Assembly: GCA_035529855.1 (NCBI GenBank)
Contig: DATKVX010000039.1
Span: 4,244-68,243, forward strand
Reading direction: 5' to 3'
Source of the DNA: a bacterium
GTDB taxonomy: Bacteria > RBG-13-66-14 > B26-G2 > WVWN01
DNA: 64,000 nt
The notes under the pieces are model-generated. The model ran no database searches. It saw only the letters and a program-made list of their open reading frames with translations, and was not told the origin of the DNA. This document shows positions 5,999-62,920 of the stretch, one piece after another (within the stretch, counting starts at the first letter, position 1; every line of letters starts with the position of its first letter). Made by a program: the position numbers and the translations under genes.

Positions 5999-6056
5999 TT
6001 TCCTCCTCCTACGCCCAAGCCCGGGGCGCGGCGCGGCCCAAACGAAACCGCTCAAC

Positions 6057-7748
6057 CTACCGGTTAATCCACCGCCCGGAGGCGTCGGCCTCTTCGGCGA
6101 GCCGCGAACTTATTCGCGCCATGTTATCCACGGCGTCGCGCACCGCCTTAACCTGGCCCAAGGCTTCGGCCGCGGCCTCGTTTATATTCTCGACCGCGGT
6201 AGTGACTTGCTCCAGACCCAAACTCTGTTGTCGCGCCGACGCCGCGATTTGTTTAGACGTCCGGCCCATCTCGTCGACTAACGGGACGATTTCCTCGATC
6301 AAACTCTTCGTCTTCGCGGCGCCCTCGCGTAAGATACTCGACTGCTCGGCGCTCCCCCGCGCCGACGCCACCGTCTTCACCGTCCCGTCCCTTATGTCGT
6401 GCAGGACTTTTCGTATTTCCTCGGTGCCCTCTTTCGACGACCCGGCTAAGTTCTTCACCTCCCGCGCCACCGCGGCGAAACCTCGGCCGAACTCGCCCGC
6501 TTTCGCCGCCTCGATGGAGGCGTTCAACGCCAAGACCGTCGACTGTTCCGCGAGGTCGTTGACCAGAGCCACGATGTCGTCCATCCGGCGCGCGCTCTCG
6601 TTTAAGGTCACCGCGAGTTTGGCGGTGGTATGGGCCTCCTCGGCCAACGCCCCTATTCTCTCCGTGTTCCCCGATATCTGGTCCCGGGCGGTCTTTATCA
6701 ATCCCGCCGACGAGTCGACGCGCCCCGATATTTCCTCCGCCCGCGCCGCGGTCTGCTTAACCGTCCCCGCCAGCTCCTTCATCGTAACCGAAGTCTGGGA
6801 AATAGCCGAGGCCTGCTCCGCCGCTATGCTCGCTTGTTCCGTCAAACTCTCGCGGGCGCGGCCGGCCCCGCCGGCGAGTTCTTCCGCTGCGCGCCGTGTT
6901 TTTTCGTCAAACGCGCGGGCATCGTCGAAGAACCGTCGGTACGCGGCCGTCAACTCCTCGACCTCGCCGCCTACGTAATACGTAATCGGCGCCGCCGTAG
7001 CGGTATTCCTGAGCGGCACCGTTACGTGACCGGAAGCGACGTACGCCGCCGCCGCGGATACGGCTACCAACACCGCCGCCGCCGCCCACCGGCCCAAACC
7101 CCACGCGGCCCCGCCGCCCAAACCGGGGCCGACGGCCGCTAACGCGATTAAAGCCGCCGCGCCCGCGCCACCCGCGATAAGGTACCGAACACCGAGCGAT
7201 ACACCCCGCCGCGGCGCGAACCTAATCCTCTTCGCCGTTAGGAACGCGAAAATCGGCGCCAAATAACGCTCCGCGGCCGCGTACGAAACGAGGCCGTACA
7301 TAAGGGCGGCCCCGACGCCGATACACCAAATCGCCGCTACCCCGGCGTAACCGGCGGGCCCTGCTGCCGCGGCTCCGCAAATGACGTACGCCACGACGCC
7401 GCTCACGAAAGCGACGAGGGCCGCTAAAAACGGGAACGCCCTGATCCGCTTGGCGGCCGGCGGTTCGAAATCATTTTGGGTAGCGGCCGGCGTCAAGAAC
7501 GAAACCGCCCGCGCCAGCGACGCCGCCATAGCCGCAACGACGACGACCGACGCCAGGCCCAACGGCGCGACTACGTACAGATGGGCGTATACCAGGCGGC
7601 GTTGCGCCGCGGCTTCGAGGCCGGCGGTCAGGAATAAGGCCGCCGCCGCCGGCAATACGTAAAAAGCGACGAACAATAACGCTTGCGTAAACGCCACTCG
7701 GGGGACGTCGACGCCGGTTTCGTCTCGCGCAGCCACGTTAGCTACCAC
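6057..7748 (-). CDS. Methyl-accepting chemotaxis protein with a multi-TM N-terminal domain. GTG start.
   Basis: The C-terminus carries the MCP signalling signature ...LALNASIEAAKAGEFGRGFAAVAREVKNLA... The N-terminal 250 aa or so are polytopic. Confidence 0.8.
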   Translation of the reverse strand: MVANVAARDETGVDVPRVAFTQALLFVAFYVLPAAAALFLTAGLEAAAQRRLVYAHLYVVAPLGLASVVVVAAMAASLARAVSFLTPAATQNDFEPPAAKRIRAFPFLAALVAFVSGVVAYVICGAAAAGPAGYAGVAAIWCIGVGAALMYGLVSYAAAERYLAPIFAFLTAKRIRFAPRRGVSLGVRYLIAGGAGAAALIALAAVGPGLGGGAAWGLGRWAAAAVLVAVSAAAAYVASGHVTVPLRNTATAAPITYYVGGEVEELTAAYRRFFDDARAFDEKTRRAAEELAGGAGRARESLTEQASIAAEQASAISQTSVTMKELAGTVKQTAARAEEISGRVDSSAGLIKTARDQISGNTERIGALAEEAHTTAKLAVTLNESARRMDDIVALVNDLAEQSTVLALNASIEAAKAGEFGRGFAAVAREVKNLAGSSKEGTEEIRKVLHDIRDGTVKTVASARGSAEQSSILREGAAKTKSLIEEIVPLVDEMGRTSKQIAASARQQSLGLEQVTTAVENINEAAAEALGQVKAVRDAVDNMARISSRLAEEADASGRWINR

Positions 7749-7772
7749 CTCGGGCTTTTACTCCGGACGTAT

Positions 7773-8612
7773 CTATTCGGCCGTAACCTCCTCGGCCTCG
7801 AGCCATTCCGCCGGCAACGCGTAACCTTCCCGGACGAGTTTCATCGTCGTCGCGACGTGTTCTCCCAAATCGCGCTGCTTGCCGCCGATTATAAAAGACC
7901 TCTCCCGCGTGCCGGCGACATCGAGACGGGCGTACGCCGGCAGGCCGTCGGGAGCCGGGACGGCCGCACCCGCGCCCTCGTACGAAGACCGCCCCGTCAT
8001 GGTGCTGAACTTCGTATCCTGGCTGAGTTTTTGGTTAAATACGACCGAAAATTCGACTTGTGCGCCCTCTTCCCCCTCGAAAGCGGGCAACGGCTGCGCC
8101 TCGGCCGCTTCCATAGATACGACGCTCGTACCGTAGGAACGCGCCACCGCCGCCCGGGCGCCGTCGCGCCACAAGTCGGCCTTCGGGCCGCCGGGCGGAA
8201 AGAGCATCAACGCCAATAAGTTATAACTGATTTCCTCGCTGTCCTTGACGAACGCCGGCGCGCGCTTCACGCCGCCCTCGGCCAACGTCCAGGGCGCGAA
8301 CTCGAGCCACCGCCCGGGTAAAAACCCGGCCACCTTCTCGACGTCCGGTATCACCGCGTCGCCCGCGAGCGTTTGTTGGTTCGCGGTCACGAACGTCAAC
8401 CGGTACACGCCGCCGTCGAGCTCCTCCAGCGAGAAGGTCGCCGACGTCTCGGTGCGGCTGAGCGACGGTATGCCGAACGCGTTCGCTACTTCCGCGGACG
8501 CGCCGTCGATCTCGTGCGTCGCGACGACGCTAACGGCGTAATTAACCGGCACCGCGGAAGCCGCTGCGGCCGCCGCCACCACCGCCGCCGCCAAATAATA
8601 GGCCCTATACAT
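7773..8612 (-). CDS. Hypothetical secreted protein.
   Basis: The signal peptide is MYRAYYLAAAVVAAAAAASAVPV. I recognised no family. Confidence 0.5.
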   Translation of the reverse strand: MYRAYYLAAAVVAAAAAASAVPVNYAVSVVATHEIDGASAEVANAFGIPSLSRTETSATFSLEELDGGVYRLTFVTANQQTLAGDAVIPDVEKVAGFLPGRWLEFAPWTLAEGGVKRAPAFVKDSEEISYNLLALMLFPPGGPKADLWRDGARAAVARSYGTSVVSMEAAEAQPLPAFEGEEGAQVEFSVVFNQKLSQDTKFSTMTGRSSYEGAGAAVPAPDGLPAYARLDVAGTRERSFIIGGKQRDLGEHVATTMKLVREGYALPAEWLEAEEVTAE

Positions 8613-8694
8613 ATTCTACCCTAATGCCGTTAATACTTGGACTTTTGTAACATCTTTAACGTCCTTTATCAACCATTTTCGGCCGCGGCCGGCG

Positions 8695-8723
8695 TTGACA
8701 CCGCGGCCTTCGTGTGTTAATTT
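8695..8723 (+). promoter_or_regulatory. Sigma70-like promoter: TTGACA, a 17-bp spacer, then TAATTT. It sits upstream of the gamma-CA gene.
   Basis: ttgaca(8695-8700)-ccgcggccttcgtgtgt-taattt(8718-8723). RBS GAGGAG precedes the ATG at 8751. Confidence 0.5.
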
Positions 8724-8750
8724 GCTCGTCGAAGCACACGAGGAGAATAT

Positions 8751-9272
8751 ATGATCGAGGGTTATTTGGAATACGAACCCCGGCTGGGCCGGGATGTCTA
8801 CGTCGCGCCCACGGCGCTGGTGCTGGGGCGCGTTACGCTGGGCGAACGCGCTTCCGTTTGGCCGGGCGCGGTCCTGCGCGGCGACATCAACGAGATAATC
8901 GTCGGCGAGTACACCAACATCCAGGACCTGTGTGTGGGCCACCTGGAGGACGACTTGCCGCTCGTCGTGGGCGCGTACGTGACGGTAGGCCACGGCGCCA
9001 TACTGCACGCCTGCGAGGTGGGCGATAATTGCTTAATCGGCATGGGCGCCATCGTGCTGAACGGCGCCAGGGTGGGCGACGGCGCCATCGTAGGCGCGGG
9101 CTCGCTGGTGCCGCCGGGCAAAGAGGTCGCGGCCGGCGTCCTCGCCCTCGGCTCGCCCGCCAAAGTGGTGAGGAAGCTCTCGGACGACGAAATAGGCCAC
9201 AACCGCTACTGGGCCGAAAAGTACGCCAAGCTCGCCGCGACCTTCTTGCGGGACCGGAAGGACAACGCGTAG
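8751..9272 (+). CDS. Gamma-class carbonic anhydrase / hexapeptide-repeat protein (YrdA/PaaY/CaiE family).
   Basis: RLGRDVYVAPTALVLGRVTLGERASVWPGAVLRGD...VGHGAILHAC... shows left-handed beta-helix hexapeptide repeats with His ligands. Confidence 0.8.
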   Translation: MIEGYLEYEPRLGRDVYVAPTALVLGRVTLGERASVWPGAVLRGDINEIIVGEYTNIQDLCVGHLEDDLPLVVGAYVTVGHGAILHACEVGDNCLIGMGAIVLNGARVGDGAIVGAGSLVPPGKEVAAGVLALGSPAKVVRKLSDDEIGHNRYWAEKYAKLAATFLRDRKDNA

Positions 9273-13345: not shown

Positions 13346-14446
13346 ATGCCCGAGGTAAAATGCCCCAAGTGCGACACCGCCATACCCTATACCGACGCCG
13401 ACGCGGGAAAGGCCGTCAAGTGCGCGAGCTGCGGCGCCGAGGTGTTCGCGGTCGAGGCCGCCGAAAAACTCATCAGCCTGAAGTGCGCGGGCTGCGGCGG
13501 CACGATAGACCTGCAGCCGGGGATGGCGGAGGCCTTGTGCCAATATTGCGGCGCGTCGTACCTGCTGCCGGCCGCGGCGGCGCCGGTCACCAAGGCCGAC
13601 GTCCCGGAATATATTACGACGTTCAAAATCTTCCAGAACGATATGCTCGAGCACCTGAACAAGTGGCTCGATAAGGGGGTCTTTACCGCCGGCGACGCGG
13701 ACACCGCCGCGGCCGTAACCAAAGCAACCGCCAAATACGTTCCGCTGTACGTCTGCAACTGCGACGCGACCTCCGCGTGGACCGGCCGGAACAGCACTAC
13801 CGAACACCGCACCGTAACGAAGACCCGCACCGACGCCCAGGACGCGCGCTCAACGTATCAGGAGGAGGAACCGTACAAAGAATGGCACAGCGCCTCCGGG
13901 ACCCACGTGGGGCATTACCGCGTCGCGCTGGCGGCCTCGAGCGGCATCCCCCAGGACGACCTGGACAAGCTCGTCGGCGACCCGGGCAACTTTACGAGCG
14001 ACGAGGGGGCCGAGCCGTACGGCCGCGCCGTCCGCGAGGATAACTTCCCGGTGGAGCGCACGGCCTTCGACGCCGCCGAGGCCAAACGGCGGGCCAAGAT
14101 GAAGGTGGAAGCGCTCGAGCGCGCGGCCTGCGAGGGCGAGGTGGAGCGCCTCGGTTCGTGCAGCACCCAGCTCTCGAACCTCACCGCGCGCCTCTCGTAT
14201 CACCCTTTCTGGTGGCTCACTTATTCGTACAAGGCCAAGGCGTACAATTGCGTCATGGACGGCGTGACGGGAGCCGTGACCGGCAAGAAACCCGTAAGCA
14301 AAACGAAAATAGTAATCGCCGTCGTCGTCGCGGTAATCGTCGTCGTATTGATCGTAATAGCGATAGCTTGCCTCGGCGGCGGATACTGCGCGAGCACGTC
14401 GGCGCTATTCGACTGCGTAGTCGAGGGCGCCCGGGCACCGGCCTAA
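13346..14446 (+). CDS. Tandem zinc-ribbon protein with a C-terminal TM anchor.
   Basis: It carries two CxxC...CxxC ribbons (CPKC..CASC and CAGC..CQYC). The C-terminus has the TM helix IVIAVVVAVIVVVLIVIAIA. RBS AAAGGAGAG. Confidence 0.55.
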   Translation: MPEVKCPKCDTAIPYTDADAGKAVKCASCGAEVFAVEAAEKLISLKCAGCGGTIDLQPGMAEALCQYCGASYLLPAAAAPVTKADVPEYITTFKIFQNDMLEHLNKWLDKGVFTAGDADTAAAVTKATAKYVPLYVCNCDATSAWTGRNSTTEHRTVTKTRTDAQDARSTYQEEEPYKEWHSASGTHVGHYRVALAASSGIPQDDLDKLVGDPGNFTSDEGAEPYGRAVREDNFPVERTAFDAAEAKRRAKMKVEALERAACEGEVERLGSCSTQLSNLTARLSYHPFWWLTYSYKAKAYNCVMDGVTGAVTGKKPVSKTKIVIAVVVAVIVVVLIVIAIACLGGGYCASTSALFDCVVEGARAPA

Positions 14447-15020: not shown

Positions 15021-17201
15021 TTACCGGACTACCAGGCGCTCGAAATCGGACCTGCCGCGCAGCGACGCGAGGTCCCCGTCCTCTGCAGCCATTTTCTTAT
15101 AACGGGCCGGCGCGAGTTCTACGGCGCGGCCTAGCTCCGCCATCGCTTCGTCGCCGCGGCCTTGCTGTGCCAGCGCGCACGCCAGGTTGTACCTCGCCCG
15201 GGGGTCTTCGCCCATCTTTAAGATAACGCGGTACTCCCGCGCCGCCGCGGCGTAGTCGCCCATTTGATGGAGGACCTCGGCCAGCCTGTGCCTGACGTCC
15301 AGGGCCTTCGGCTCGTAGTACGCCGCCTCCTCATAATAGTCGCGGGCCTGCTCGAGGTCGCCCCGGTCGCGGGTGACGTTGCCCAGCTCGTACCAGGCCG
15401 CGCTGAAGTTGGGCTGGAAGTGAACGGAACGTTCTAATTTCTCGGCGGCGCCGTCGATGTCGCCTTCCCCCAAAAGGAGTTTACCGTAGAAATAATACGC
15501 CCGGCCGTCCTCGGGCTCCAAAGTTAGCGCGCGCTCGTAGCACTCGCGCGCCCCCTCCACGTCGCCGGCCTGCGCGCGGATGTTGCCTATGTTATTCCAC
15601 GCCTTGGCGTACGTGGGTTCTACCTTGGCCACCAGCCGGAAGTAATATTCCGCCTTTTCCATATCGCCCCGCCGCGCGGCGATGATGCCGAGGTCGTTGA
15701 GCGTGTTCATGCCGGCGATTTCCCAATCCGCCTCCAGCGCCGCCTCGTACTCGCGCTCGGCGGCGTCGAAGTCGCCGTCGGCGAGGTATACCGTACCCAT
15801 CGCATAATGCCCTTGCGCCTCGAACTTCGACTGCCGGCCTATTCCGAACGGGTCCGCATCGCAGAATACGAACAGCGCCGCGAGCGCCGCGACGCGCCAA
15901 CCGATTCGTACGCCGCGCCACCGCCGCAAATTTTCCCAGAAATAGAAGAAAGCCGCGGCGGCGAAAACGCAAAAATAAGGCACGACCGGCATCCGGAAAC
16001 GCGCGTTCACGAAGAACAATATCACCGACGCCGAATAGGCGACGACATAAATATACGACGGCGCCAATTGCCGCCACCGCCGCGCATATAGAATCATTCC
16101 GAAGAAGGCGAACGGTAAAACGACGTACAGGCTCACCGGGTCGTATTTCAACACCCAGAAATGCTTTTTCAAATAATAGAGGTCGAAATTGTTCGCGACC
16201 TCGTACGCGTTCGTGAAGAAATAAGTTTTCTGCGCTAGTAACCTGAGCGCCGTCAACGGCTCCGTGCGACCGAACTCGGCTACGCGAGCCAGGTAGTAGT
16301 GATCTACTTCGGAACGGCTTAGCGGCCTGCCGACGGCCTCCTCCGCCATCCGTATCGATTCGTAATGGCCCCGCCACCAGTCGCCGTGGGTCCCCGGCAC
16401 CATCGCCGTCATACCGTCCGCTTCGGGGTTGTTGCCTATCCACAGGTTGACGCCGCCCTGCCAGGATATCAGGACCGGCTCCCGGGCGACGGCGTAGTTC
16501 CGCGCCGCCACCGCGCCCACGAACGCCCCGGCGAGGCCGTACAAGATAGCGAGCGATACGATTATACGTCGCCGCGGCAAACGCTTCCCGGCCCGGGCCG
16601 CGACGTACGCCAGCCAGATGAAGGCCGCCACCGCGAGAACGTTGGGCCTGGTTATAGCGGCCAACCCCAGCGCTACGCCCGCCGCCGCGGCCCACCGGTA
16701 ATTGCCGGTCTTCGCCGAACGCACGACGGCGTACACGAACGCGAGCCCCAGCGGGACCTCCAGCACCACCAACAACAATTCAACGTCGTAAAAGACGGCG
16801 GTCCATATCGTGCCCAGCGCGACCGCCGCTACGGCGCCCACCCGCCGGTCGAAGAACTCGCGGCCCAGGAGGAAACAAAGCCCCGCGCTTAAGCCGCCTA
16901 CGAAACCCTGCGCTACGCGCGCAAACAGGACCGACCCTTTACCCAACCAGTACAATAACCCCAAAAAGTACGGGTACAGCGGCGCCCGGAAGAAAACCTC
17001 GTCCCCCCAGAAGTCGCCGCCGGCGATGCGACGCGCCCACGCGTCGTGGTAGGACATATCCATAACGGGGGTCCGGTAGTACGCGTGGTCGCCGGCCGTC
17101 GCCAGCAAGAGCAACCGGACGGCGACGGCCCACACCACGACGCCGGCCAGTATTAACCAATCGCGCCGCGTCCAACCCTTATCCACTTCTTCCGTTACCA
17201 T
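15021..17201 (-). CDS. GT-C glycosyltransferase (ArnT/PMT-like) fused to a C-terminal TPR array, paralog 3.
   Basis: The N-terminal 480 aa or so are polytopic (...FWGDEVFFRAPLYPYFLGL...). The C-terminus carries at least 6 TPR repeats (AWNNIGNIRAQAGDVEGARECYERAL..). Confidence 0.7.
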   Translation of the reverse strand: MVTEEVDKGWTRRDWLILAGVVVWAVAVRLLLLATAGDHAYYRTPVMDMSYHDAWARRIAGGDFWGDEVFFRAPLYPYFLGLLYWLGKGSVLFARVAQGFVGGLSAGLCFLLGREFFDRRVGAVAAVALGTIWTAVFYDVELLLVVLEVPLGLAFVYAVVRSAKTGNYRWAAAAGVALGLAAITRPNVLAVAAFIWLAYVAARAGKRLPRRRIIVSLAILYGLAGAFVGAVAARNYAVAREPVLISWQGGVNLWIGNNPEADGMTAMVPGTHGDWWRGHYESIRMAEEAVGRPLSRSEVDHYYLARVAEFGRTEPLTALRLLAQKTYFFTNAYEVANNFDLYYLKKHFWVLKYDPVSLYVVLPFAFFGMILYARRWRQLAPSYIYVVAYSASVILFFVNARFRMPVVPYFCVFAAAAFFYFWENLRRWRGVRIGWRVAALAALFVFCDADPFGIGRQSKFEAQGHYAMGTVYLADGDFDAAEREYEAALEADWEIAGMNTLNDLGIIAARRGDMEKAEYYFRLVAKVEPTYAKAWNNIGNIRAQAGDVEGARECYERALTLEPEDGRAYYFYGKLLLGEGDIDGAAEKLERSVHFQPNFSAAWYELGNVTRDRGDLEQARDYYEEAAYYEPKALDVRHRLAEVLHQMGDYAAAAREYRVILKMGEDPRARYNLACALAQQGRGDEAMAELGRAVELAPARYKKMAAEDGDLASLRGRSDFERLVVR

Positions 17202-17277
17202 TGCGGGAATATAACACCGGCCTTACGCCTTCCTCAACACAAATAAAGGTTTGCCTCCGCCCGCGTTTTTACATATT

Positions 17278-18702
17278 ATGGTTCCCGTGGAACGCGCGAA
17301 AGCCCCGTGCCTGCTTATGCTATTGGCGTTCGCGGTCTCGCCGTTGCCCGGCGGCGCCGCGCCGACCGACGAACTGCGCGGCCTGTGGGTATGTCCGTGG
17401 GACGTGAACTCCCCCGCGGCCGTGGACCGCGTTATAAACGCCGCCGCGAGGTACAACTTCAACGCCCTTTTCGTCGAGGTTCGCTACCGCGGCGACGCGC
17501 TCTACGTTCCCAACAAGAACGACGGCCGCTTCCCCAATCCGGAACCCCGCTCCCCCCACCTCGCCGGCCAACCGGCCGACTTCGACCCGCTGGAAGAGAT
17601 AATCGAAAAAGGCCACGCCGCCGGCCTGGAGGTCCACGCCTGGGTAACGACGTACGTCGTTTTGAACCGGAAGACGCCCACGCCGCCCGGCCACCCCGCG
17701 CTCGAGCATCCCGAGTGGTTGAGCCAGAACGGCCGCGGCGAAACGTGGGACCCGCACGGCATGGCCTGGCTCGAGCCCGCGCTGCCCGAAGTCCGGGACT
17801 ACCTCTATAATGTATTCGGCGATATCGTCGCCAACTACGACGTCGACGGCCTGCACCTCGATTACGTCCGCTACCCCTCGCCCGCCTTCGGCCGGCACCC
17901 TAAAGCCATAGAATTATATCAAGCCGAAACCGGGAAGACGCTGGAAGACGCGCAGGCCTTCGCGGACTGGCGCCGGCAAAAAATAAACGCCTTCCTGAAT
18001 CGGCTTTACGACGGCCTTGCCGCGCTTAAGCCCGCTTGCCGGTTTACGGCGGCCGCCTTCGCCTCGCGAAAGGGGACGGCCTATAACGACTGCCTCCAGG
18101 ACTGGACCGCCTGGCTCGAGGGCGGCTACGTAGACGCCGTAATGCCGATGGCGTACAGCCGCGACGCCGGCATAGTAGGCAAGCAAATCGACGACGCCGT
18201 GGGCGTCGCGTCAGGCCGCCACATTTACGCCGGCATTATGGTCCCGGAGGTGGCGGCCGACGAATTCGACGACGCCGTCGGCGAGGAGATGGTCGCGAAG
18301 GGTCGCGCAGCCAGGGAGGCCGGAGCCGACGGATTGGTGGTATTCTCGAGCAAAGGCGCGTTGAAGGAAGACGCGCTCGTCGCCCGGGCGATGCGCGAGG
18401 GATTGTTCGCCGAACCGGCCGAGCCCCCCGAAATGGCTTGGAAGGGCGAAGTACCGCTTGCCGCCGGCGCGGCCGTCGTTACGGTCTACGTAAAAGGCGA
18501 GCCGAGATTCGCCGTACGCGTCGAACAAGACGTCCCGCGCCGCCACGCCTACTTGCTCGCCAAAGAAATCTCGGCGCGCGCGAACGCCGACGTATTCATA
18601 AAAGCCGCGTCCGACCGAACGTACCGCGTCTACGCCGGCGCGTACGACGAGCGCCCCGCCGCGGCCGAACTCCGCGACAAGCTCGCGCGTCTCGGTTATT
18701 AG
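17278..18702 (+). CDS. GH10-like (GHL10/DUF187-type) glycoside hydrolase-like protein with a C-terminal SPOR domain; secreted.
   Basis: The signal peptide is MVPVERAKAPCLLMLLAFAVSPL. The TIM-barrel-like region reads LRGLWVCPWDV...NALFVEVRYRGDALY. The C-terminal SPOR-like region reads RTYRVYAGAYDERPAAAELRDKLARLGY. The ORF-track start is a TTG at 17251, so the true start is uncertain. Confidence 0.5.
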   Translation: MVPVERAKAPCLLMLLAFAVSPLPGGAAPTDELRGLWVCPWDVNSPAAVDRVINAAARYNFNALFVEVRYRGDALYVPNKNDGRFPNPEPRSPHLAGQPADFDPLEEIIEKGHAAGLEVHAWVTTYVVLNRKTPTPPGHPALEHPEWLSQNGRGETWDPHGMAWLEPALPEVRDYLYNVFGDIVANYDVDGLHLDYVRYPSPAFGRHPKAIELYQAETGKTLEDAQAFADWRRQKINAFLNRLYDGLAALKPACRFTAAAFASRKGTAYNDCLQDWTAWLEGGYVDAVMPMAYSRDAGIVGKQIDDAVGVASGRHIYAGIMVPEVAADEFDDAVGEEMVAKGRAAREAGADGLVVFSSKGALKEDALVARAMREGLFAEPAEPPEMAWKGEVPLAAGAAVVTVYVKGEPRFAVRVEQDVPRRHAYLLAKEISARANADVFIKAASDRTYRVYAGAYDERPAAAELRDKLARLGY

Positions 18703-20025
18703 ATGAATCGGCACCTTAGAGCGGCCCTGGTTTGCGGCCTGGTCCTATGGGCCTTATCGGTCTCGCCGGAAGGCACCGGGCCCCGCGAACTGGTAATTAT
18801 ATATACCGGCGACAGCGGCGCCGAAGTCGAATCTTGCGGCTGCAACCTGCTCGCTTACGGCGGCCTGGCCCGCCGCGCCGCGCTCGTCAACGTCATCCGC
18901 GCCGCCCATCCCGACGCCGTCCTCGTCGACGCCGGCGACTTCCTCAGCCCCAACGTCGGCGAACAAGACCGCCTTAAAAACGAAATCTCGGCCGAGGCGT
19001 ACGGCGCTTTCGACTACGACGCCGTCAACCTGGGCGAAGACGACTTCAACTTCGGCCTGGGTTTTTTAACGAACCTGGTCGAAACCAACGATATCCCGAT
19101 AATATCGGCCAACGTCGCCGCGGAGGGGGAACCGTTCGCGCCGGCCTTCAGCGTGGTCGACCGCGCCGGCCTGAAAATCGGCATCGTGGGCTTTCTCAAC
19201 CCCGAGCTCGTCGCCGGAAAAGACTTCCGCGGCGTCGACGTCAAGCCGTATAAAAAGAGCCTCAAAGCGGCGACGTCCGAACTCGCGCGCCGGGCCGACG
19301 TCGTCATCTGCCTCGCCCACGTCGGCAACGTCGACAAAGCCCGCGCCTTCGCCGCCAAGTGCCCCAAGGAGATAGACGTCGTCATCGCGGGGCACCGCGG
19401 CGGCCAAACGTCGCAAGCGGAAAAGGTCAAAGGCCGCTGGATGGTTTACACGCGAAGCCGCAACCGCTACGTCGGCATGCTCAAGCTCTCGCTCGACGAG
19501 GAGTTAAACGTCGTCGCGGCCGAAAACCACGTCTTGCCGGTGACGAGAGAGACGGCGAAAGACGAGGCTGCGCAGGTACTGGTCGAGAAGTACTACGCCG
19601 CGCTGCGAGAACTGGTCGACGAAAAGAAGCTGTTGAAACCGCCGGAAGACGTGCCGCCGGGCGGTTTCATCTACGTGGGCACGAGTCGGTGCGCCGAGTG
19701 CCACGGCTCGCAAACGAAACAATGGCGCGCGACGGCCCACGCCGCGGCGTACGCATCCCTCGAAGAAGCGGGCCGCGAGACGGACCCGGAGTGCGTCGCC
19801 TGCCACGTTACCGGCTACGGCTTCCGCGGCGGCTTCGTGGGCGCCCGGAAACCGGCTGTATTGAACGTCGGCTGCGAGGAATGCCACGGCCCGGGTGAAG
19901 GGCACGCGCAATCGCCCGCGGTCAAAACGCCCCCCATCAACGGAAATACCTGCACCCGCTGCCACGACGCGGAGCGCAGCCCGGCGTTCGACTACGCCAA
20001 GTTCCTCGAGCCGGTCCGCCACTAA
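18703..20025 (+). CDS. Secreted fusion of a 5'-nucleotidase/metallophosphoesterase-fold domain, with degenerate metal ligands, to a C-terminal tetraheme cytochrome c domain.
   Basis: 5'-NT topology is retained (IIYTGDSGAEV / LVDAGDFLSPNV / AVNLGEDDFNFG / IPIISANVA), but the ND-HHG and GNHE ligands are replaced. The C-terminus has four CxxCH motifs (CAECH, CVACH, CEECH, CTRCH). The ATG directly abuts the stop of the upstream gene. Confidence 0.6.
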   Translation: MNRHLRAALVCGLVLWALSVSPEGTGPRELVIIYTGDSGAEVESCGCNLLAYGGLARRAALVNVIRAAHPDAVLVDAGDFLSPNVGEQDRLKNEISAEAYGAFDYDAVNLGEDDFNFGLGFLTNLVETNDIPIISANVAAEGEPFAPAFSVVDRAGLKIGIVGFLNPELVAGKDFRGVDVKPYKKSLKAATSELARRADVVICLAHVGNVDKARAFAAKCPKEIDVVIAGHRGGQTSQAEKVKGRWMVYTRSRNRYVGMLKLSLDEELNVVAAENHVLPVTRETAKDEAAQVLVEKYYAALRELVDEKKLLKPPEDVPPGGFIYVGTSRCAECHGSQTKQWRATAHAAAYASLEEAGRETDPECVACHVTGYGFRGGFVGARKPAVLNVGCEECHGPGEGHAQSPAVKTPPINGNTCTRCHDAERSPAFDYAKFLEPVRH

Positions 20026-20029
20026 GCGG

Positions 20030-20060
20030 CGACGAAAAGGCGGGCCCGGGGCCCGCCCTC
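20030..20060 (-). terminator. Hairpin terminator candidate downstream of manC (minus strand).
   Basis: GGCGGGCCC/GGGCCCGCC inverted repeat; on the minus strand it is followed by TTTTCGTC. Confidence 0.4.
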
Positions 20061-20079: not shown

Positions 20080-21159
20080 TTAAACGAGGTCCGGCCGCTC
20101 CTCCTCCAACAGCTCGACGACCTTCCGTACGTCCTGGCCGGCCCCCTTCGGGTATACGAGGACGACGTCGCCGGCGTCGACGACGACGTTGTTGTCCACG
20201 CCGAACAACACTACCGGCCGCCGGCCGCCGGCGAGGACGATGTTCCCCACGCCCCCCAGCTGGTAAACGTCGCCCCGGCCTATGTTGCCGCGGTCGTCGC
20301 GCGGCAACACGCGCTCGAGCGCGTCGAAGGAACCGATGTCGTCCCACCCGCAATCGGTTTCGACCACCTCGAACGCGGGCAACTTCTCCATAAAGGCGTA
20401 ATCCACGGACGTCGCCTCGAACCTCCCGTACAAATCCGCCACTTTCGCCGTCTCGCCCGCCGCCAACGGCCTCTTCAGGCTCTTCGCGACCGCGAACTGG
20501 TCCGGGCAACACTCGGCGGCCACCTCGAGGAAGCGGTCGGCGCGCCAAACGAACATCCCGCTATTCCACAAGTAGTCCCCCGAGGCCAGGTAATCGCGCG
20601 CCGTCGCCTCGTCCGGCTTCTCCTTGAACGCGAGGCCTTGCCGAACGCGCGGCGCGCCGGCCTCCAAAACCTCGCCGCACTTGACGTAACCGTACCCGGT
20701 TTCGGGACGGTCCGGCTTTATGCCGAAGGTAACTATGGCCCCCTCCGCGGCGCGCCCGAAACCGGCCGCCAACGCGCAGCGAAAAGCGTCCCCGTCGTCG
20801 ACGGCGTGGTCGGCCGGCAGGACGAGGACCGCGGCTTTCGAGCCGAGGCGGTCCGCTACCTCCAGCGTCCCCAAAACGCAACCGGGCCAGGTGTTGCGCG
20901 CCGCCGGCTCGGCGACGAAGTTGGCCAGCGGTATCTCCCGCAACAGCGGCCGCGCCTGGAGCAAGATGTCCTCTTCGGCTATGACGTATATCCGCGACGG
21001 CTCGAGCAGCGGCGCGACGCGCTCGTACGCGTCCTCGAGCAGCGTTCGGTCCGTCACCAACGAAAGAAACTGCTTCGGCCTGTCGCGCCGGGAGAGAGGC
21101 CAGAGCCTCGTTCCCCGGCCGCCGGCCATAATCAAGGCCGCCCTGCGTGGGCCCGGCAT
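20080..21159 (-). CDS. manC: Mannose-1-phosphate guanylyltransferase (GDP-mannose pyrophosphorylase).
   Basis: LIMAGGRGTRLWPLS...PKQF is the nucleotidyltransferase signature. A C-terminal left-handed helix is present. A strong AGGAGG RBS precedes the start. Confidence 0.8.
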   Translation of the reverse strand: MPGPRRAALIMAGGRGTRLWPLSRRDRPKQFLSLVTDRTLLEDAYERVAPLLEPSRIYVIAEEDILLQARPLLREIPLANFVAEPAARNTWPGCVLGTLEVADRLGSKAAVLVLPADHAVDDGDAFRCALAAGFGRAAEGAIVTFGIKPDRPETGYGYVKCGEVLEAGAPRVRQGLAFKEKPDEATARDYLASGDYLWNSGMFVWRADRFLEVAAECCPDQFAVAKSLKRPLAAGETAKVADLYGRFEATSVDYAFMEKLPAFEVVETDCGWDDIGSFDALERVLPRDDRGNIGRGDVYQLGGVGNIVLAGGRRPVVLFGVDNNVVVDAGDVVLVYPKGAGQDVRKVVELLEEERPDLV

Positions 21160-21163
21160 ATGG

Positions 21164-21985
21164 TTACCTCCTGACCTCGGCGTCTAAATACGGCTCGAGT
21201 AATGCGTACATCTCGGCGAACTCGCCCGGCGAAAAGCTCTCCGGCCTGGCGGCCGGCTCGAAGCCGGCCTCGCGGAGCTTGGAAGCCACCTCCGCCGCCG
21301 AAAGGCCGCCGCCCAGAAGGGTGGCCAGCCGATTGCCGACCTTCTTACGCCGCGCGGCGAAGACGAAGTCCACGAAGTGGCCGAAGAGCTCCGACCCCGC
21401 TAACGGGACCGCCTGCTCGTCGTAGTACCGGTACGTTACGAGGGCGGCGTCCACCTCCGGCTTCGGCTCGAAGGCATCGGCCGGTATCACGAACGCGATA
21501 TACGGTTCGCCCCGGGTTTGCATCTTTACCGACAGCGCGCCGTAAGCCTTGCCGCCGGGCGGGGCGCAGATGCGCTCGGCGACCTCTTTCTGGAGCGTAA
21601 GCACCCAGCGCTTAAGCTGCCGCCGGTGCTCGCCCAGGAGTTTAAGTATCGGCCCCGTAATATAAAAAGGGACGTTACCGACCGCCACCACGCGCCGGCC
21701 TTCCGGAATCAGCTCGGCCCAGTCAACGTCCAGGATGTCGCCGTGCACTATGGTAAGGTTGTCGTACCGGTCGAAGTCGCGCGCGGCGGCGTCTACGAAG
21801 CGCTCCTCCAATTCGACCGCTACCACTTCGCGGGCGCGCCGGACGAGGTGCTGCGTCAGCTCGCCCCGCCCCATTCCGATTTCGAGCACGCTCTCGTCGG
21901 GCGCTATCTCCGCGGCGTCGGCGATGCGCCGCAATACGTCGTTATCGACCAGGAATACCTGGCCTTTACGCACCCGCTTTACCAC
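21164..21985 (-). CDS. rsmA: 16S rRNA (adenine1518/1519-N6)-dimethyltransferase.
   Basis: KGQVFLVDNDVLRRIAD...VLEIGMGRGELT... shows the KsgA motifs. Confidence 0.85.
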   Translation of the reverse strand: MVKRVRKGQVFLVDNDVLRRIADAAEIAPDESVLEIGMGRGELTQHLVRRAREVVAVELEERFVDAAARDFDRYDNLTIVHGDILDVDWAELIPEGRRVVAVGNVPFYITGPILKLLGEHRRQLKRWVLTLQKEVAERICAPPGGKAYGALSVKMQTRGEPYIAFVIPADAFEPKPEVDAALVTYRYYDEQAVPLAGSELFGHFVDFVFAARRKKVGNRLATLLGGGLSAAEVASKLREAGFEPAARPESFSPGEFAEMYALLEPYLDAEVRR

Positions 21986-23946
21986 TTAATAAAGTAACCC
22001 GTTTCCAGCGTAAAAACCGCCGGTTTAAAACCCGGCTTATACCGCAGCGACGTCTCGACCTCGCGGCGGGCGTCGTCCTTCCGCCCGAGCTCGTGGTAAC
22101 AGTCGGCAAGCAAATAACGCGTGAAGGAATCGGTCGGCTCGAGCGCCACGGACCTCTCGAGATAGGGTACGGCGCCGGCGTAATCCTTTTTAAGGTAAAA
22201 GACGGTCCCCAAGTTATGTTGCACCTCGTGCGAACGGCGGCCTACGCGGTCGGCGAGCGTAAAATACTCTTCGGCCCGGCCCTCGTCGCGGGGGCGAAAA
22301 CGCGTATACAAATCGTAGAGGAAATTCCCCACCGTCCCCTGCGCCCAGTGGTCCAAGTACGTGGCGGGCGGGTCTACGCCGCGAATTACGTAACGGCCTA
22401 TGACGTCGGCGCGGGGAGGCGGCGAACCGCGTCGTACAACCCGGTAAACCGCGCCGTCCTTCGCGAGGCCGTAGCCCCACGACGCTACGAAATCGTACGG
22501 GTAGAGGAAATAATAATCGTGGCGTTTGTCCGAGAGAACGTCGCTCATAATTTCGTAGAAATATTTGACTATTACGTTGACCGGCGCGTGCGACAGGTCC
22601 CGGCCGCCGAAGTCGAAGACGTCGAAATAATTCGCGTTACCCGTGGTATCGACGAAGAAAATGTCGGGCCGCGCGTACTCCAACGTCGTCAACGCCTGTA
22701 TGCCGGTCGTAGCCGCCGAGTTCTCCTCGCCCAGGAAAACGAAGTCGCCGTACCCTACCGGACGTAAGTAATTCGCCCCGAAATCCCGGACGTACGGGTA
22801 GTAAGTCCTGTCCGCCTGGTAAAAGCGCGTAAGCACGGGCGACAGAGCGACGACCGCCGCCGGCGCCAAAAAGACGTAAGCCGCAGCCCGTCGCCATTTG
22901 GCCAACGCCTCGCCGACCCGCGTTACCGCGACGCCGGCGCATATCGCCGTCAACATGTAGAACGGGAAGTACCACGCCCGAAAGCCGAAAGACGGGTAGT
23001 TGACGATGAGGATCAACGTGAAGAAAGAGATGCCGACGAAATACAGGAAATAGCCCCGGCGCCGCCACGCCAGCCAAGCCGCGCCGACCGCGGCCGCGCC
23101 TATACCCACCCACCGGAATTGGTCCAAATATAACCACGCCGCGGTCTTGGCGCGCCACCCGACTACCGCCCAGGGCGCGCTGAACATCTGGCTCTGGAAC
23201 TCCTTACAGGTTAAATGGAAGTACAAGCCGTACAGGGTGCGCGGCTTGCCCCAATTCTGGACGACGCCGGCCGCGGACCGCACCGGCAGGTAAAGATAAG
23301 TGGACATCGCGAGCAGCCACAACGCCGCCGCTACGTAGAGGTGGCGGGGGCGAAGGCCGGCGGCGCGCCGCTGCCAAACGACGAACGCCGCGTACGGAAT
23401 CAAGAGGACCACTTGCTGGGGATGGTTGGTGCAAGCTATACCGAACGCGAAGGCCGCGGCGTAAAACCACCTGACGTCGGCGCGGCGGCGCCACGCGAAA
23501 AGCGCGAGCATCGTCGCCGCCGTGAGCGCCATGTTCATCGTGTAAACTTCGCACGTCGTGGATTGAATCCAAACCGTAGGGGCCACCGAATACGCGAGGC
23601 CCGCGACGGCCGCGCCCACCGAAGTAGCCCAACCGCCGTCCGCTATTTCGTAAACCAGCAGAACGACGAAAAAGGCCGTAGCCGCGCCCGCGACCGCCGA
23701 AAAGAGGTTCATCCCCACGATGGGGGTTACCCCGGGCAGCATCGCGAAGAGATAACACGCTAAATGCCACCCCGGGAACCCCGGCGGCACGCCGCTGCCG
23801 AGGAGGCCGACGGAACGGTTGAACAGGCCCGAGTCCTGCCAGAAGACGTCGCCGCACAGCGTTTTGGCGTATACGACGAACGCCGCCAAAGCGACCGCCG
23901 CGGCTACGTAGAAACGCTCGCCGGGCAAGGGGAATCTAGCTTTCAT
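21979..23946 (-). CDS. DUF2723 (TMEM260-like) polytopic membrane protein with C-terminal TPR repeats; putative protein glycosyltransferase.
   Basis: The N-terminal 400 aa or so are polytopic (...DVFWQDSGLF...CTNHPQQVVLL...). The C-terminus has TPR repeats (HNLGTVFYLKKDYAGAVPYLERSVALEP..). Confidence 0.6.
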   Translation of the reverse strand: MKARFPLPGERFYVAAAVALAAFVVYAKTLCGDVFWQDSGLFNRSVGLLGSGVPPGFPGWHLACYLFAMLPGVTPIVGMNLFSAVAGAATAFFVVLLVYEIADGGWATSVGAAVAGLAYSVAPTVWIQSTTCEVYTMNMALTAATMLALFAWRRRADVRWFYAAAFAFGIACTNHPQQVVLLIPYAAFVVWQRRAAGLRPRHLYVAAALWLLAMSTYLYLPVRSAAGVVQNWGKPRTLYGLYFHLTCKEFQSQMFSAPWAVVGWRAKTAAWLYLDQFRWVGIGAAAVGAAWLAWRRRGYFLYFVGISFFTLILIVNYPSFGFRAWYFPFYMLTAICAGVAVTRVGEALAKWRRAAAYVFLAPAAVVALSPVLTRFYQADRTYYPYVRDFGANYLRPVGYGDFVFLGEENSAATTGIQALTTLEYARPDIFFVDTTGNANYFDVFDFGGRDLSHAPVNVIVKYFYEIMSDVLSDKRHDYYFLYPYDFVASWGYGLAKDGAVYRVVRRGSPPPRADVIGRYVIRGVDPPATYLDHWAQGTVGNFLYDLYTRFRPRDEGRAEEYFTLADRVGRRSHEVQHNLGTVFYLKKDYAGAVPYLERSVALEPTDSFTRYLLADCYHELGRKDDARREVETSLRYKPGFKPAVFTLETGYFIKW

Positions 23947-44728: not shown

Positions 44729-47700
44729 ATGGCTTCACCCTCCCGGAATAACGAACCCGCCGACGCGAGACGCCGAAAAGACGCCCGCGCTTTAAAAATG
44801 CGGGTTCACGGTACGACGTCGCGGGCCGAATTGCTGCCGCTCGCGACGAGCGGCCTGGCCGAATACTTCGGCGCCGAAGCGTGCGCCATCGTCTCGCGCG
44901 AGGGCACCGACCAACTCGAAATCGCGCTCTCAACCGGGCCTTCCGGGAAATACCGTCAACTCTCTTCGCCGGTCGCAGACGAAAACGTCGCCACTCGAGC
45001 GCTGCGCTCGGGGCGCGTCTTGAACCTGCCGTCGGCGTCCGCGGACGACCTCGCGGGGCTTCCCCTCGTCAAGGGTTACGCCGGCGGCTCGGTATTGGCC
45101 GTACCGTTAAAATCGGCGGACGGCGTAACCGGCGTAACCGTCTTGGTAAAAGGAGCCGAAGCCGGCGCCTTTTCGCCGGAAGACGAAGCCGAAAGTCGGT
45201 CCTTCGCCGACGAAATCGCGGCGACGCTAACCGCGATTAGCGGGCGCGAGAATTTGTCCGCCGAACTCGACCGCCTGAAATGGGAGAACAAACAACTCCG
45301 CCTCGTCATAGAATCCGCTCCCGCCCTATCCTCGGCCCAAGACCTGCAGACGCCGTTGGAACGGCTCCTGCAAGAAACAAGAAAGGGCATCCCGTTCGAC
45401 AAAGGCGCCGTATACTTTTACGACGAGAAGAGCGACGCCGTAAAGCAACTGGCCACCGTCGGCTACACGCCGGAAGAGGCGCAACTCATAACCGAGACTT
45501 TCCGAGAGAGCCTGGCCTACCAGGCCCTGCAGGATAACGAAACGGCCTACGTCGTCGACGTCTCCGCCGCGGCCGGCGGCCTGATGACCGCCGAAACGAG
45601 CGTTGGTTCCTCCCTCGCCGTCCCCATAGCCGTCGGCGAAACCGCCTTCGGCGTTATCACGCTGGGGAGCGACGTACGGGGCGCCTTCGAAAAAGAGGAC
45701 GTAACCTTCGTAGAAGCGCTCGCGGCTTGCGCGGCGTCCGCCGTCGAAAACGCCCGCCGCTTGGAGGGCGAGCGGAAGCGCGCGCTCCAACTAAGTCTCA
45801 TAAATGAGATCGGCAAAAAAGCCCTCCTCAGCGCATCCACGCGCGAGTTATATAAAGAAATAGCGGCCGCCATAAAGGACAAATTCAATTACTACAACGT
45901 CGCCATATTCTCGGTCGACGCGCGCGAAGACGAGCTGTTCCTCGAGACCATAGTAGGGGGTTACGCCAACTACCTTCCGGTAGGTTACCGTCAGCGTCGC
46001 AGCGACGGCCTCGTCGGCGCCGCGGTCGAAGCGAAACGCACAATACTGGTCAACGACGTAACAAAAGACGACCGATTCCTCGCGGCCAACCCGTCGTTGA
46101 CGGAAACCAAGTCCGAGCTGTGCGTACCGGTAATCGGTCGCGGCGGGGCGGCGGTAGCGGCCGTGATAGATATCCAAAGCAGGCGCACCGGCGCTTTCGA
46201 GGAAAGCGATACGCTGGTATTAGCGACGCTGGCCGACCAGGTCGGCGTGATAATCGAAAACGCCGGCTTGCTGCGCGAGGAACGGCAGCGGGCGAGCGAG
46301 ATAGCGCTCATCGGAGACCTCGGTAAAGAAATACTCGCGGCGCACGACGTACCGGCCCTGTTGCGGAAGGCGTCGGCGGCCATAAGGAGACACTTTAAAT
46401 ATTTCAACGTGGCGGCCTTCCTGGTAGACCCGGATGACGTTCAGACCATTATCGGCAGCGTCGTCGAGGGGGCGTACGAGAAAGCGCTCGAAAGGCCGCC
46501 GCGCATCAAACTCGGCGAGGGCTTTATCGGCTGGGCCGCGGAGAAGGGTGAAGTGGCGTTCTCCAACGACGCGACCAACGACCCGCGCTACGCACCCGAC
46601 CCCATCCCCGGCGATACCCGCTCCGAAATCGCCGTCCCCATCAAAATCGGCGACCGCGTCGTGGGCGTTCTCGACGTCCAGGAAAACGCCAAAGACGCGC
46701 TGACCAAACACGACCTGGACCTCCTGCGGACCTTCGCGGACCAACTCGCGGTCGCCATCCAGAACGTAAAGCTACTCACCGACGAACAAAAGGCTACCCA
46801 CAACGCCGAAACCCTCCTCCACATCGGCCACATAGTAAGCCAAACGCCCGACTTGGAGAAATCATTAGAGTTCCTCGTCGAGGAGACGAGGACCATTATG
46901 GACGCCGACGCGTCGGCGTTAATTCTCCTCGACGACGCGAAAGGACCCAAACAATTTAAAGCGTCGGCCGGCCTGTCCGAAGAAAGCGAAAAACTCCTCA
47001 GCTCGGGCGAAATCAACGTGGGGGGCCACCCCATATTCGAGGAGGCGGCGGCCAGAAACAAACCGGTATTCCTGGCCGACGTCGGCCCGACGGATGATAA
47101 GGTAAAAGGCGACTTGCTACCGGGCCTAACCGCCCGGTCGTTAGCCGTCGCGGCCCTAAAAAAGAAAAATCGCGTTTTGGGTTTTCTACTGTCTATTTGG
47201 CAAACGCCCCGCCCGGCCGTTTCGGAATCGGACCTCGCGTTATTCGAGGGCATCGCCTTCCAAGCCGCCATCGGCGTCGAAAACTTGCTGTACCTTGAAA
47301 ACGTTAAAAGACAAACCGACTACCTCGCCATCCTGAGCTCGATCGCCGCCGACGCCAGCCGGCTGCCGCCGTTCGACGAACTGCTGGACGCCGCCCTCGA
47401 AAAAATACGTTCCTTCGCCGGACTCGACGCCGGCGTCGTCCACTTATACGACGCGAAACGCCGTTCGTTGGTCTTAACCGCGACCGCGAGCGTCGACGAC
47501 GAAAAATCGAAAAGTTGGGAGGGACTCGCGGACATCGGGGGCGAACGCGCCGCGGCCTTATTGACCGAGGATACGATAACGCGGGAGCGTCCGGCGGAGG
47601 CCGACCCCTTCGGCCTTCCGGCCCGCGACGCCGAGGGGCCGGCGTCGTACGTCTCGCTCCCCCTGGTCGCCAAGCGAGAAGTGCTCGGCAGGCTGACGTT

Positions 47701-59853: not shown

Positions 59854-60798
59854 TTACATCTTTTCTGAAATCAAATAAATAATTGCGTTTAGCCACATAA
59901 TATTCAATTTTCTATTAGTGGTATTAGAGGCGTTATGGTTAAAATAGGAATAGAATAGATTCCAATAATCCTTATCCCATTTTAGTAACCAAGCAGCATC
60001 GTACGTTCCGTGACCTAAATTTTCTTCATCGGTTAAATGATAAAACTTGAAGAGTACTTCGGGTTCGCCTCTAATAAAAGAATTAGGTATATCTTCGTGG
60101 GATTTAATAATCCGCGAGCCGTACGAACCTTCTTCTCCGGGTAATTCTACTCTACCCACCTTTTTACAAATCGGGTGATTGTAATCGAAAGGGTTGACCT
60201 CAACCGTTACGTAAGGTTTATCGAAATGACCTACTTCTCCAAAAAAGTGTAAATCGTGGGTACATACGGCGCTACCGCCCCCGCTTAAATAAGTCTTTAA
60301 TGCGTTTTCTATATCCACCCTTCTATCGTAAATTCCGTAACCAGTGGGGCAATGCTCGTCCGTATAATGTCGATTGTCACCAATTCCAAAGATGCAATCA
60401 TATTCGTTATTTATCTGGCCGACCGCATTTAAGAATTCGACCCGGAAAAACGGGCTAAAAAAATCCCGGAAATGATCTATGTAACTATTATGGCAAATCA
60501 CCAATAGCCTGGGCTTGAATTTCTTATTAACTTTTTTAGGATAGGGTAAAGGCAAGAGCCTTAAGACTTTTTTTTTGTCGTTGTCGGGTGCGGAAATAGT
60601 CGATATAAAGGTTAGAATAACCGCTAAAACCGGTCCTATTATAGTCGCCAACGCTACTATTTTATCTCCCTCAAAATCGAAAACCGCCAAAATTCCTATA
60701 GAAATTACTAAGATAAAAAGGCTTATATAGGTAACGAAAAGAACCCGTCCATACCTTCGATTTAGGTATTTAGTAACCCAATAAAACCCTATTTCCAT
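59854..60798 (-). CDS. Hypothetical 2-TM membrane protein from the AT-rich island; possible PLC-like phosphodiesterase (weak motif-level hint).
   Basis: The N-terminal helices are VLFVTYISLFILVISIGILAV and IVALATIIGPVLAVILTFI. The downstream domain carries LLVICHNSYIDHF, resembling the PI-PLC X-box 'sHNsY'. A second His lies about 50 aa later (NRHYTDEH). RBS GGGAG. AT-rich. Confidence 0.45.
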   Translation of the reverse strand: MEIGFYWVTKYLNRRYGRVLFVTYISLFILVISIGILAVFDFEGDKIVALATIIGPVLAVILTFISTISAPDNDKKKVLRLLPLPYPKKVNKKFKPRLLVICHNSYIDHFRDFFSPFFRVEFLNAVGQINNEYDCIFGIGDNRHYTDEHCPTGYGIYDRRVDIENALKTYLSGGGSAVCTHDLHFFGEVGHFDKPYVTVEVNPFDYNHPICKKVGRVELPGEEGSYGSRIIKSHEDIPNSFIRGEPEVLFKFYHLTDEENLGHGTYDAAWLLKWDKDYWNLFYSYFNHNASNTTNRKLNIMWLNAIIYLISEKM

Positions 60799-60860
60799 CT
60801 CATTCGCTCCCGCGGTCGTAGGTCGCAGCGGTCTATGTGTTGGATTGTTTTTTCAATTTA

Positions 60861-62848: not shown

Positions 62849-62920
62849 GTTCTTTTTACTCCTCGTTGTGATAATATAATTATGAGCTGGAAACGTCAAC
62901 TTAAAATATTCCTAAAAAAC

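Follow-up and report, generated by a model that had tools for sequence, protein, structure and literature searches.

A cysteine-form UshA-like (seleno)protein fused to a tetraheme cytochrome domain: a candidate heme-wired thiol/selenol oxidoreductase

The stretch of bacterial DNA analysed here comprises 64 kb of contig DATKVX010000039.1 and is called the window below. It contains two abutting genes, of which gene A encodes a glycosidase and gene B a protein that joins a 5'-nucleotidase-type domain to a c554-like tetraheme cytochrome domain. We consider it fairly likely that gene B encodes an exported, heme-wired thiol/selenol oxidoreductase. A first-pass annotation of this DNA had read the N-terminal domain of gene B as a pseudoenzyme or binding module, and had overlooked a Cys-Gly-Cys (CGC) motif at residues 45–47. 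Since this motif is near-invariant and orthologues have selenocysteine (Sec) at codon 47, we interpret it as a putative redox centre and no longer hold to the pseudoenzyme reading.

Conservation was assessed in an alignment of 151 family representatives (50% identity clustering), to which all family percentages below refer. C45, G46 and C47 are conserved in 97%, 95% and 98%, respectively. Five homologues with 45–49% identity to gene B appeared to be N-terminally truncated. On the contigs of two of these five, the four-gene synteny of the window is present and gene B is split into an open reading frame (ORF) of 41–46 codons and the 'truncated' gene. Translation through the gap in these two split orthologues gives 'EDCG*S', with the stop, a TGA codon, exactly at the position of C47. 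The in-frame TGA at codon 47 is found in loci L001–L003 and L004, all syntenic with the window, and likewise in an unrelated genome of 6.45 Mb (L005), where a second paralogue reads 'EECG*K'. The window and all its closer relatives have TGC or TGT at this codon. The encoded proteins remain similar both before and after the TGA, and the tblastn alignments pass through it. Gene B therefore appears to be the Cys form of a selenoprotein that has Sec in place of the motif's second Cys; Sec insertion in the TGA forms is what we infer from homology. Where a motif is invariant except that one position is either Cys or Sec, the residue at that position is usually redox-active. This signature is also stated in general terms in recent reviews (PMC9312934, PMC13188914). 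At L005 the paralogues are arranged in tandem, with a Cys form at 6001–7434 (ECGC, TGC) and a Sec form at 7655–9016 (EECG-TGA-K), and they sit behind a 1348-residue protein without a Pfam match. A PTP/ArsC-type C-x5-R loop was considered as well and rejected, as the C47–R57 spacing is nine residues here and variable across the family.

The domain that carries the motif has the topology of a 5'-nucleotidase, as the first-pass annotation had proposed. An AlphaFold2 model of gene B built from 46 sequences (predicted local distance difference test, pLDDT, 82.9; predicted TM-score, pTM, 0.81; pLDDT < 50 at residues 1–25) matched CD73, UshA, YfkN and SoxB in Foldseek at E between ~5e-23 and ~1e-22 and TM ~0.55. 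A phmmer search against solved structures matched residues ~28–290 to 5'-nucleotidases and the C-terminus to cytochrome c554. The active site itself has changed. Alignment to a solved 5'-nucleotidase shows 'YTGDSGA' in place of 'HTNDVHA' and 'LGEDDF' in place of 'LGNHEF', so that the replacements reported earlier (ND-HHG by GD-SGA and GNHE by GEDD) were correct, and the metallophosphoesterase profile PF00149 reaches only 16.2 bits on gene B, below its threshold of 21.5. The former ligand positions vary among the representatives: position 37 is E, D, Q or R, position 39 is N, H, R or D, position 79 is G, D or N and position 112 is E, P or A, and His occupies position 206 in 60% and position 231 in 31%. 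By these comparisons, the classical dimetal phosphoesterase site is lost in gene B and across the family. The residues G53, G54, R57, R58, G78 and N137, on the other hand, are conserved at 92–100%. The family naturally lacks the His ligands and is, to judge from its CGC motif, apparently catalytic, a combination that the first-pass annotation itself had named as speaking against its reading. The nucleotide-binding C-domain 5_nucleotid_C (PF02872) gave no Pfam match in gene B, which has a linker and the cytochrome domain in its place. True 5'-nucleotidase matches carry PF02872 and the fusion-family homologues do not. With this substrate-binding domain missing, the earlier description as a nucleotide or sugar-binding fold does not apply, and gene B would not be expected to hydrolyse nucleotides.

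The fusion of the two domains had been regarded as an unusual combination, but it is the architecture of a large family. Gene B matches the NCBIfam profile NF041198, 'UshA-like (seleno)protein' (UshA_like_PCGU), with E 8.6e-77 and 258.9 bits; its residues 22–266 match profile positions 16–269, and its C-terminal 144 residues alone match positions 404–519 with E 1.9e-34. Since positions 404–519 are the tetraheme domain, the combination of UshA-like domain and hemes belongs to NF041198 itself. When 1.84 billion representatives were searched with a profile, 5,377 proteins had E <= 1e-30. The best 150 of these 5,377 (50% identity, E <= 2.4e-99) all span both domains, and 148 of the 150 have exactly four CxxCH motifs. 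Family loci come from metagenome-assembled genomes (MAGs) labelled Zixibacteria, Nitrospirota, Planctomycetota and Polyangiaceae (Myxococcota), and one close homologue of gene B is labelled Coatesbacteria. The NF041198 family was described as the 'COG0737, UshA-like' CxU selenoprotein in the 2008 Global Ocean Sampling (GOS) study of Zhang & Gladyshev (PMC2398784) and was relisted as a selenoprotein family in reviews of 2022 and 2026 (PMC9312934, PMC13188914). Gene B was unannotated until now, and nothing in the window goes beyond what selenoproteome specialists have catalogued.

The four CxxCH motifs of gene B noted in the first pass are real and are conserved in 100% of the representatives. 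No other reading frame of at least 100 codons in the window contains a CxxCH motif. The Pfam profile Cytochrome_C554 (PF13435) matches residues 330–396 with E 9.1e-17 and 62.2 bits (gathering threshold 20.8). Covalent attachment of heme is predicted. H346, H401 and H440 are conserved at 99–100% and are three candidate distal ligands for four hemes. Cytochrome c554 presumably has three bis-His hemes and one five-coordinate heme, to which motif 2 would correspond. The presence of three invariant additional His residues for four hemes, together with the alignment to c554, suggests that in gene B, too, three hemes have bis-His ligation and the fourth receives no distal ligand from the protein. Related heme modules occur next to other redox folds. 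In the homologues P0038 and P0039, two tetraheme modules of ~36% identity to that of gene B follow a TlpA/ResA-like thioredoxin-fold domain (CPHC); both are 640 residues long with eight CxxCH motifs each (P0038 at L029, 6001–7923). Family member P0232 contains a DsbA-like segment.

Taken together, these features would fit the following mechanism. Gene B would be exported to the periplasm, where the CGC motif (Cys-Gly-Sec elsewhere) would form a redox centre in the loop after the first strand, beside the vestigial phosphate-binding pocket. The c554-like domain would link this centre to a periplasmic electron-transfer chain. The C45/C47 disulfide, which would be a selenylsulfide in the Sec forms, would take up or give off electrons by way of the three bis-His hemes and the fourth heme, for which no distal ligand is conserved. 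The centre would then reduce or oxidise a periplasmic substrate, most plausibly a sulfur, selenium or phosphate-like oxyanion or a thiol/disulfide. An earlier suggestion of a periplasmic electron-transfer or sensing unit coupled to gene A is thereby retained in part: electron transfer is probable, but coupling to the hydrolase finds no support outside one lineage.

Several points weigh against the interpretation as a thiol/selenol oxidoreductase. The score of gene B lies under the curated equivalog cut-off of 275 bits for NF041198, as do those of the distant full-length homologues P0036, P0041, P0047 and P0048, and we therefore file gene B as a probable Cys-form near-member or sister clade just under this cut-off. 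The pLDDT is only ~72 around the CGC loop and falls below 50 at residues 371–387. In L001 and L004, the hairpins that begin 4 nt downstream of the TGA did not differ in energy from shuffled sequence (z of -0.7 and -1.0), and in this G+C-rich DNA the corresponding site of Cys-form genes gave hairpin energies at least as low. As these hairpins are not statistically distinctive, we do not claim a selenocysteine insertion sequence (SECIS) element. Gene B also retains D37, D79, H206 and H231, four of the old ligand positions, and a residual metal site may therefore exist in its clade. Selenocysteine is furthermore known as a metal ligand in formate dehydrogenase (FdhA) and [NiFeSe] hydrogenase, so that the Cys/Sec exchange alone is no proof of thiol-disulfide chemistry. 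The 2008 GOS paper places the UshA-like family with SelD and FdhA, among proteins without a classical Cys-based redox motif (PMC2398784). Finally, our literature search for experiments on the fusion or on NF041198 found no paper characterising any member.

The points on metal ligation lead to an alternative in which the CGC or Cys-Gly-Sec residues belong to a remodelled site for Fe, Ni, Cu, Mo, W or a heavy metal in the old phosphatase pocket, again wired to the hemes. The scaffold is indeed a metallophosphatase fold, E43 (78%), D76 (79%), D/E114 (100%) and N137 (99%) are conserved, and the retained ligand positions and the precedents for Sec ligation fit it too. However, none of the classical ligand positions is constant within the family, ordinary 5'-nucleotidases likewise conserve D76, D/E114 and N137 in a structural role, and two Cys spaced by one Gly do not suffice alone for a full coordination sphere. 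Moreover, the same heme module is joined elsewhere to CxxC thioredoxin-fold domains, and we regard a metal site as unlikely. Rather unlikely, in our view, is a further reading in which the Cys or Sec of the motif stands against heme 2, as its sixth ligand or as a direct reaction partner. If true, this would place a His/Cys(Sec)-heme catalytic centre inside the former phosphate-binding pocket, where an oxyanion of sulfur, selenium or arsenic that resembles phosphate could be reduced or oxidised, and would define a new class of periplasmic redox enzymes with the first natural selenolate-heme site. Gene B might also be a plain electron-transfer cytochrome, with the N-terminal domain as scaffold or docking surface and the CGC motif as a structural disulfide. 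Cytochrome c554 is itself an electron carrier, and most family members are solitary in varied contexts, with no evident substrate or partner. Yet it is hard to explain why costly Sec would replace a structural Cys, as seen in three sequences from two distant lineages (L001–L003 and L004; L005), and a scaffold of 300 residues conserved with invariant GG..RR, G78 and N137 suggests that the N-terminal domain has a function of its own. This makes a plain cytochrome very improbable.

The remaining alternative retains the N-terminal domain as a dead or binding module and treats it, the hemes and the GHL10-SPOR hydrolase encoded by gene A as one unit, for instance for sensing or for redox control of septal cleavage. 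Its main attraction is the gene pairing. The close lineage consists of MAGs that carry the label Zixibacteria or Coatesbacteria. In its 12 loci, with gene B identities from 92% down to 46%, the two genes always abut or overlap, which supports their co-transcription in this lineage. The gene order in these loci, as far as the contigs reach, is PMT/TPR(-), GHL10(+), gene B(+), NTP-transferase(-). Since the flanking genes are thus syntenic as well, adjacency within the close lineage is uninformative on function. No GHL10 homologue was found within ~6 kb of the distant family members at L005–L009 and L017–L021 or in the contexts of P0040, P0044, P0045, P0046 and P0047; these include members labelled Myxococcota, Nitrospirota and Planctomycetota. 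ORF calls in the high-GC loci L018–L020 are noisy, and neighbour annotation was not drawn from these. The GHL10 pairing is seen only in the close lineage; the coupling to a peptidoglycan hydrolase proposed in the first-pass annotation is unsupported outside it, and no sign of joint action of genes A and B was found. Envelope and division genes do occur near two distant members, namely an M23 peptidase and an FtsX-like gene at L017 (5456–8676) and Maf and an SLT lytic transglycosylase at L008 (5174–5788 and 10349–11017), but they are on the opposite strand and anecdotal. A dead module is further contradicted by the near-invariant CGC motif with its Sec substitution, and we consider the combined unit quite improbable.

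In the distant clade, a DUF1573/HYDIN-type Ig-like protein is more plausible than GHL10 as a conserved partner of the presumed oxidoreductase. A gene for such a protein of 390–405 residues is located directly upstream on the same strand in four distant contexts (Table 1), and in P0373 a DUF1573 domain is fused to the family protein. The two DUF1573 proteins that were compared share only 26% identity. A role as universal partner was rejected, as neither the window nor the remaining loci yielded a homologue. A ManC-type NTP-transferase recurs near L019, L021 and L027. Like the envelope and division genes mentioned above, these cases are too few to tell from chance.

Gene A can be understood without the cytochrome. 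Its catalytic domain matches GHL10 (PF02638) with E 3.5e-41 and 141.7 bits (gathering threshold 27.9), and 16 homologues share the block DGxHLDYVRY without variation. Among solved structures, only the cell-wall protein Cwp19 of C. difficile (structure 5oq2, E 2.7e-22) is homologous. The C-terminus is divergent in sequence and reaches 18.7 bits (E 0.0022) with the SPOR profile PF05036, under the 21-bit gathering threshold; a SPOR fold, with its ribonucleoprotein (RNP)-like beta-alpha-beta repeat, was confirmed at the fold level. Both domains that the first pass had assigned to gene A were thus recovered, SPOR at the level of fold. In databases the homologues go under 'lipoprotein YddW' or 'family 10 glycosylhydrolase', and with the Joint Genome Institute (JGI) names of the homologues we take YddW to be DigH of E. 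coli. DigH accumulates at midcell and specifically hydrolyses denuded glycans, to which SPOR domains bind (PMC12288456). On sequence grounds, gene A is predicted to encode a peptidoglycan glycan hydrolase of the DigH/Cwp19 type, and by analogy its SPOR domain probably directs the enzyme to denuded septal glycans. Gene A looks like a DigH-type enzyme fused to a module that recognises its likely substrate, a tidy example of such a fusion and coherent on its own.

Both genes are present as described in the first pass, with gene B starting directly after gene A: the TAG stop of gene A occupies 18700–18702, and the next base, 18703, opens the ATG of gene B (Table 1). The start of gene A could be TTG 17251, which gives the longest ORF, or ATG 17278. 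The latter fits the N-termini of the homologues and would give a normal signal peptide. A sigma-70-like promoter match at 17251–17279 overlaps this likely start codon and was given no weight as evidence. The pair is flanked by a divergent gene for a PMT_2/TPR membrane glycosyltransferase (15021–17201, - strand) and by a convergent gene for a ManC-type NTP-transferase (20080–21159, - strand), both assigned by Pfam. A hairpin between the convergent genes likely terminates transcription in both directions and would close the operon; the terminator consensus scan did not list it, as its + strand has no T-run. As the abutting genes are bounded by the divergent gene, the convergent gene and this hairpin, the region resembles a two-gene operon. 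Scans of the whole window gave no Rfam match at gathering threshold and no tRNA genes, including tRNA-Sec.

Table 1. Coordinates of genes A and B, of their domains and motifs, and of DUF1573 neighbours in distant contexts (window positions unless a locus is named).
Feature	Position	Strand	Remarks
Gene A	17278..18702	+	Predicted secreted GHL10 (YddW/DigH, Cwp19-type) glycosidase with C-terminal SPOR domain
GHL10 catalytic (TIM-barrel type) domain	17371..18198	+	Best Pfam stretch; residues 41–316 in 483-aa numbering
SPOR domain of gene A	18472..18699	+	~ residues 408–483
Gene B	18703..20025	+	440 aa; predicted Cys-form UshA-like (seleno)protein fused to c554-like tetraheme cytochrome
Probable Sec-type signal peptide of gene B	18703..18765	+	MNRHLRAALVCGLVLWALSVS; predicted, read from sequence
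5'-nucleotidase-type metallophosphatase N-domain	18784..19632	+	~ residues 28–310; no conserved dimetal site; Foldseek, phmmer
C45-G46-C47 motif (tgc ggc tgc)	18835..18843	+	Codon 47 at 18841–18843
c554-like tetraheme domain	19669..20022	+	Residues 323–440; c554 structure 1bvb, E 3.9e-14
Heme motif 1, CAECH	19690..19704	+	C330–H334; 100% conserved
Heme motif 2, CVACH	19792..19806	+	C364–H368; 100% conserved; aligned to second CxxCH of c554
Heme motif 3, CEECH	19873..19887	+	C391–H395; 100% conserved
Heme motif 4, CTRCH	19951..19965	+	C417–H421; 100% conserved
G+C-rich perfect hairpin, ggcgggcc-cgg-ggcccgcc	20039..20057	no strand	Read directly from sequence; between the convergent gene B and NTP-transferase gene
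DUF1573 neighbours (examples)	L028 4785–5987; L030 3223–4425; contigs of P0044, P0047		

The wider surroundings contain a few further features. Together with a second gene at 21979–23946 (-), the divergent gene forms a pair of PMT_2/TMEM260-like glycosyltransferases with C-terminal TPR arrays that bracket the operon. KsgA (21164–21985) lies beside the ManC-type gene, and this block is syntenic in related MAGs. The PMT_2/ManC block could be a neighbourhood for protein O-mannosylation or envelope glycosylation. A gene at 13346–14446 (+) encodes 366 residues with two N-terminal zinc-ribbon-like CxxC pairs, a C-terminal transmembrane segment and only weak Pfam matches; L001 has a gene of the same length at the same position. 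Further downstream, 44729–49414 (+) encodes a sensor histidine kinase of 1561 residues, in which about seven GAF domains precede PAS, HisKA and HATPase_c. The region 59854–63776 has a low-GC core (~60000–62000, G+C 0.44 versus ~0.63 elsewhere) and contains an Eco29kI-type restriction endonuclease (60861–61469, -; PF09517, E 2e-60) that overlaps a DNA methylase (61466–62899, -). A type II restriction-modification cassette was probably acquired here by horizontal transfer.

These results correct the current labels, under which gene B is listed as '5'-nucleotidase family' or 'hypothetical protein' and gene A as 'family 10 glycosylhydrolase'. The UshA-like selenoprotein family comprises thousands of sequence clusters and has been known since 2008; our searches brought up neither a function nor a structure nor an experiment for it. 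Gene B is a compact natural Cys form, which could be expressed with standard cytochrome c maturation and without selenocysteine machinery. This makes it testable whether the Cys-Gly-Cys/Sec centre of a phosphatase scaffold is wired to four hemes.

Compared with NF041198, gene B has the same two domains and a C-G-[C/U] motif at the same position, but the profile has Pro-Cys-Gly-Sec where gene B has Ser-Cys-Gly-Cys, the Pro being replaced by Ser in its clade. Profile positions 270–403 correspond to only ~56 residues in gene B, which is ~80 residues shorter between the domains. With 5'-nucleotidase/UshA/CD73 and SoxB, gene B shares the N-domain fold and the structural motifs GG.ARR, D.GD and SAN, and it differs from them in the loss of the dimetal ligands and of the catalytic His of GNHE. 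Its CGC insertion, and the cytochrome domain in place of the substrate-binding PF02872, further separate it from the 5'-nucleotidases. Cytochrome c554 of Nitrosomonas europaea (PF13435; PDB 1bvb/1ft5) has the same spacing pattern of four CxxCH motifs and has the blocks C..CH......W..T.HA.A and GYG..GG in common with gene B. The heme domain of gene B is far more compact, however (~118 versus 211 residues), is fused to an enzyme-like domain and has no link to hydroxylamine oxidation. The His/Cys(Sec)-heme centre considered above for heme 2 would compare with the Cys-ligated hemes of TsdA and SoxAX. As for gene A, DigH (YddW) of E. coli is not described as SPOR-bearing in the literature consulted here, whereas gene A joins the catalytic and targeting modules in one protein; RlpA and CwlC are SPOR-bearing hydrolases like gene A, with a different catalytic domain. 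Closest to the proposed function of gene B are P0038 and P0039, in which hemes are likewise joined to a dithiol, with another redox fold and two heme modules. By analogy, these proteins would be functional counterparts of gene B and another uncharacterised type of heme-wired thiol oxidoreductase.

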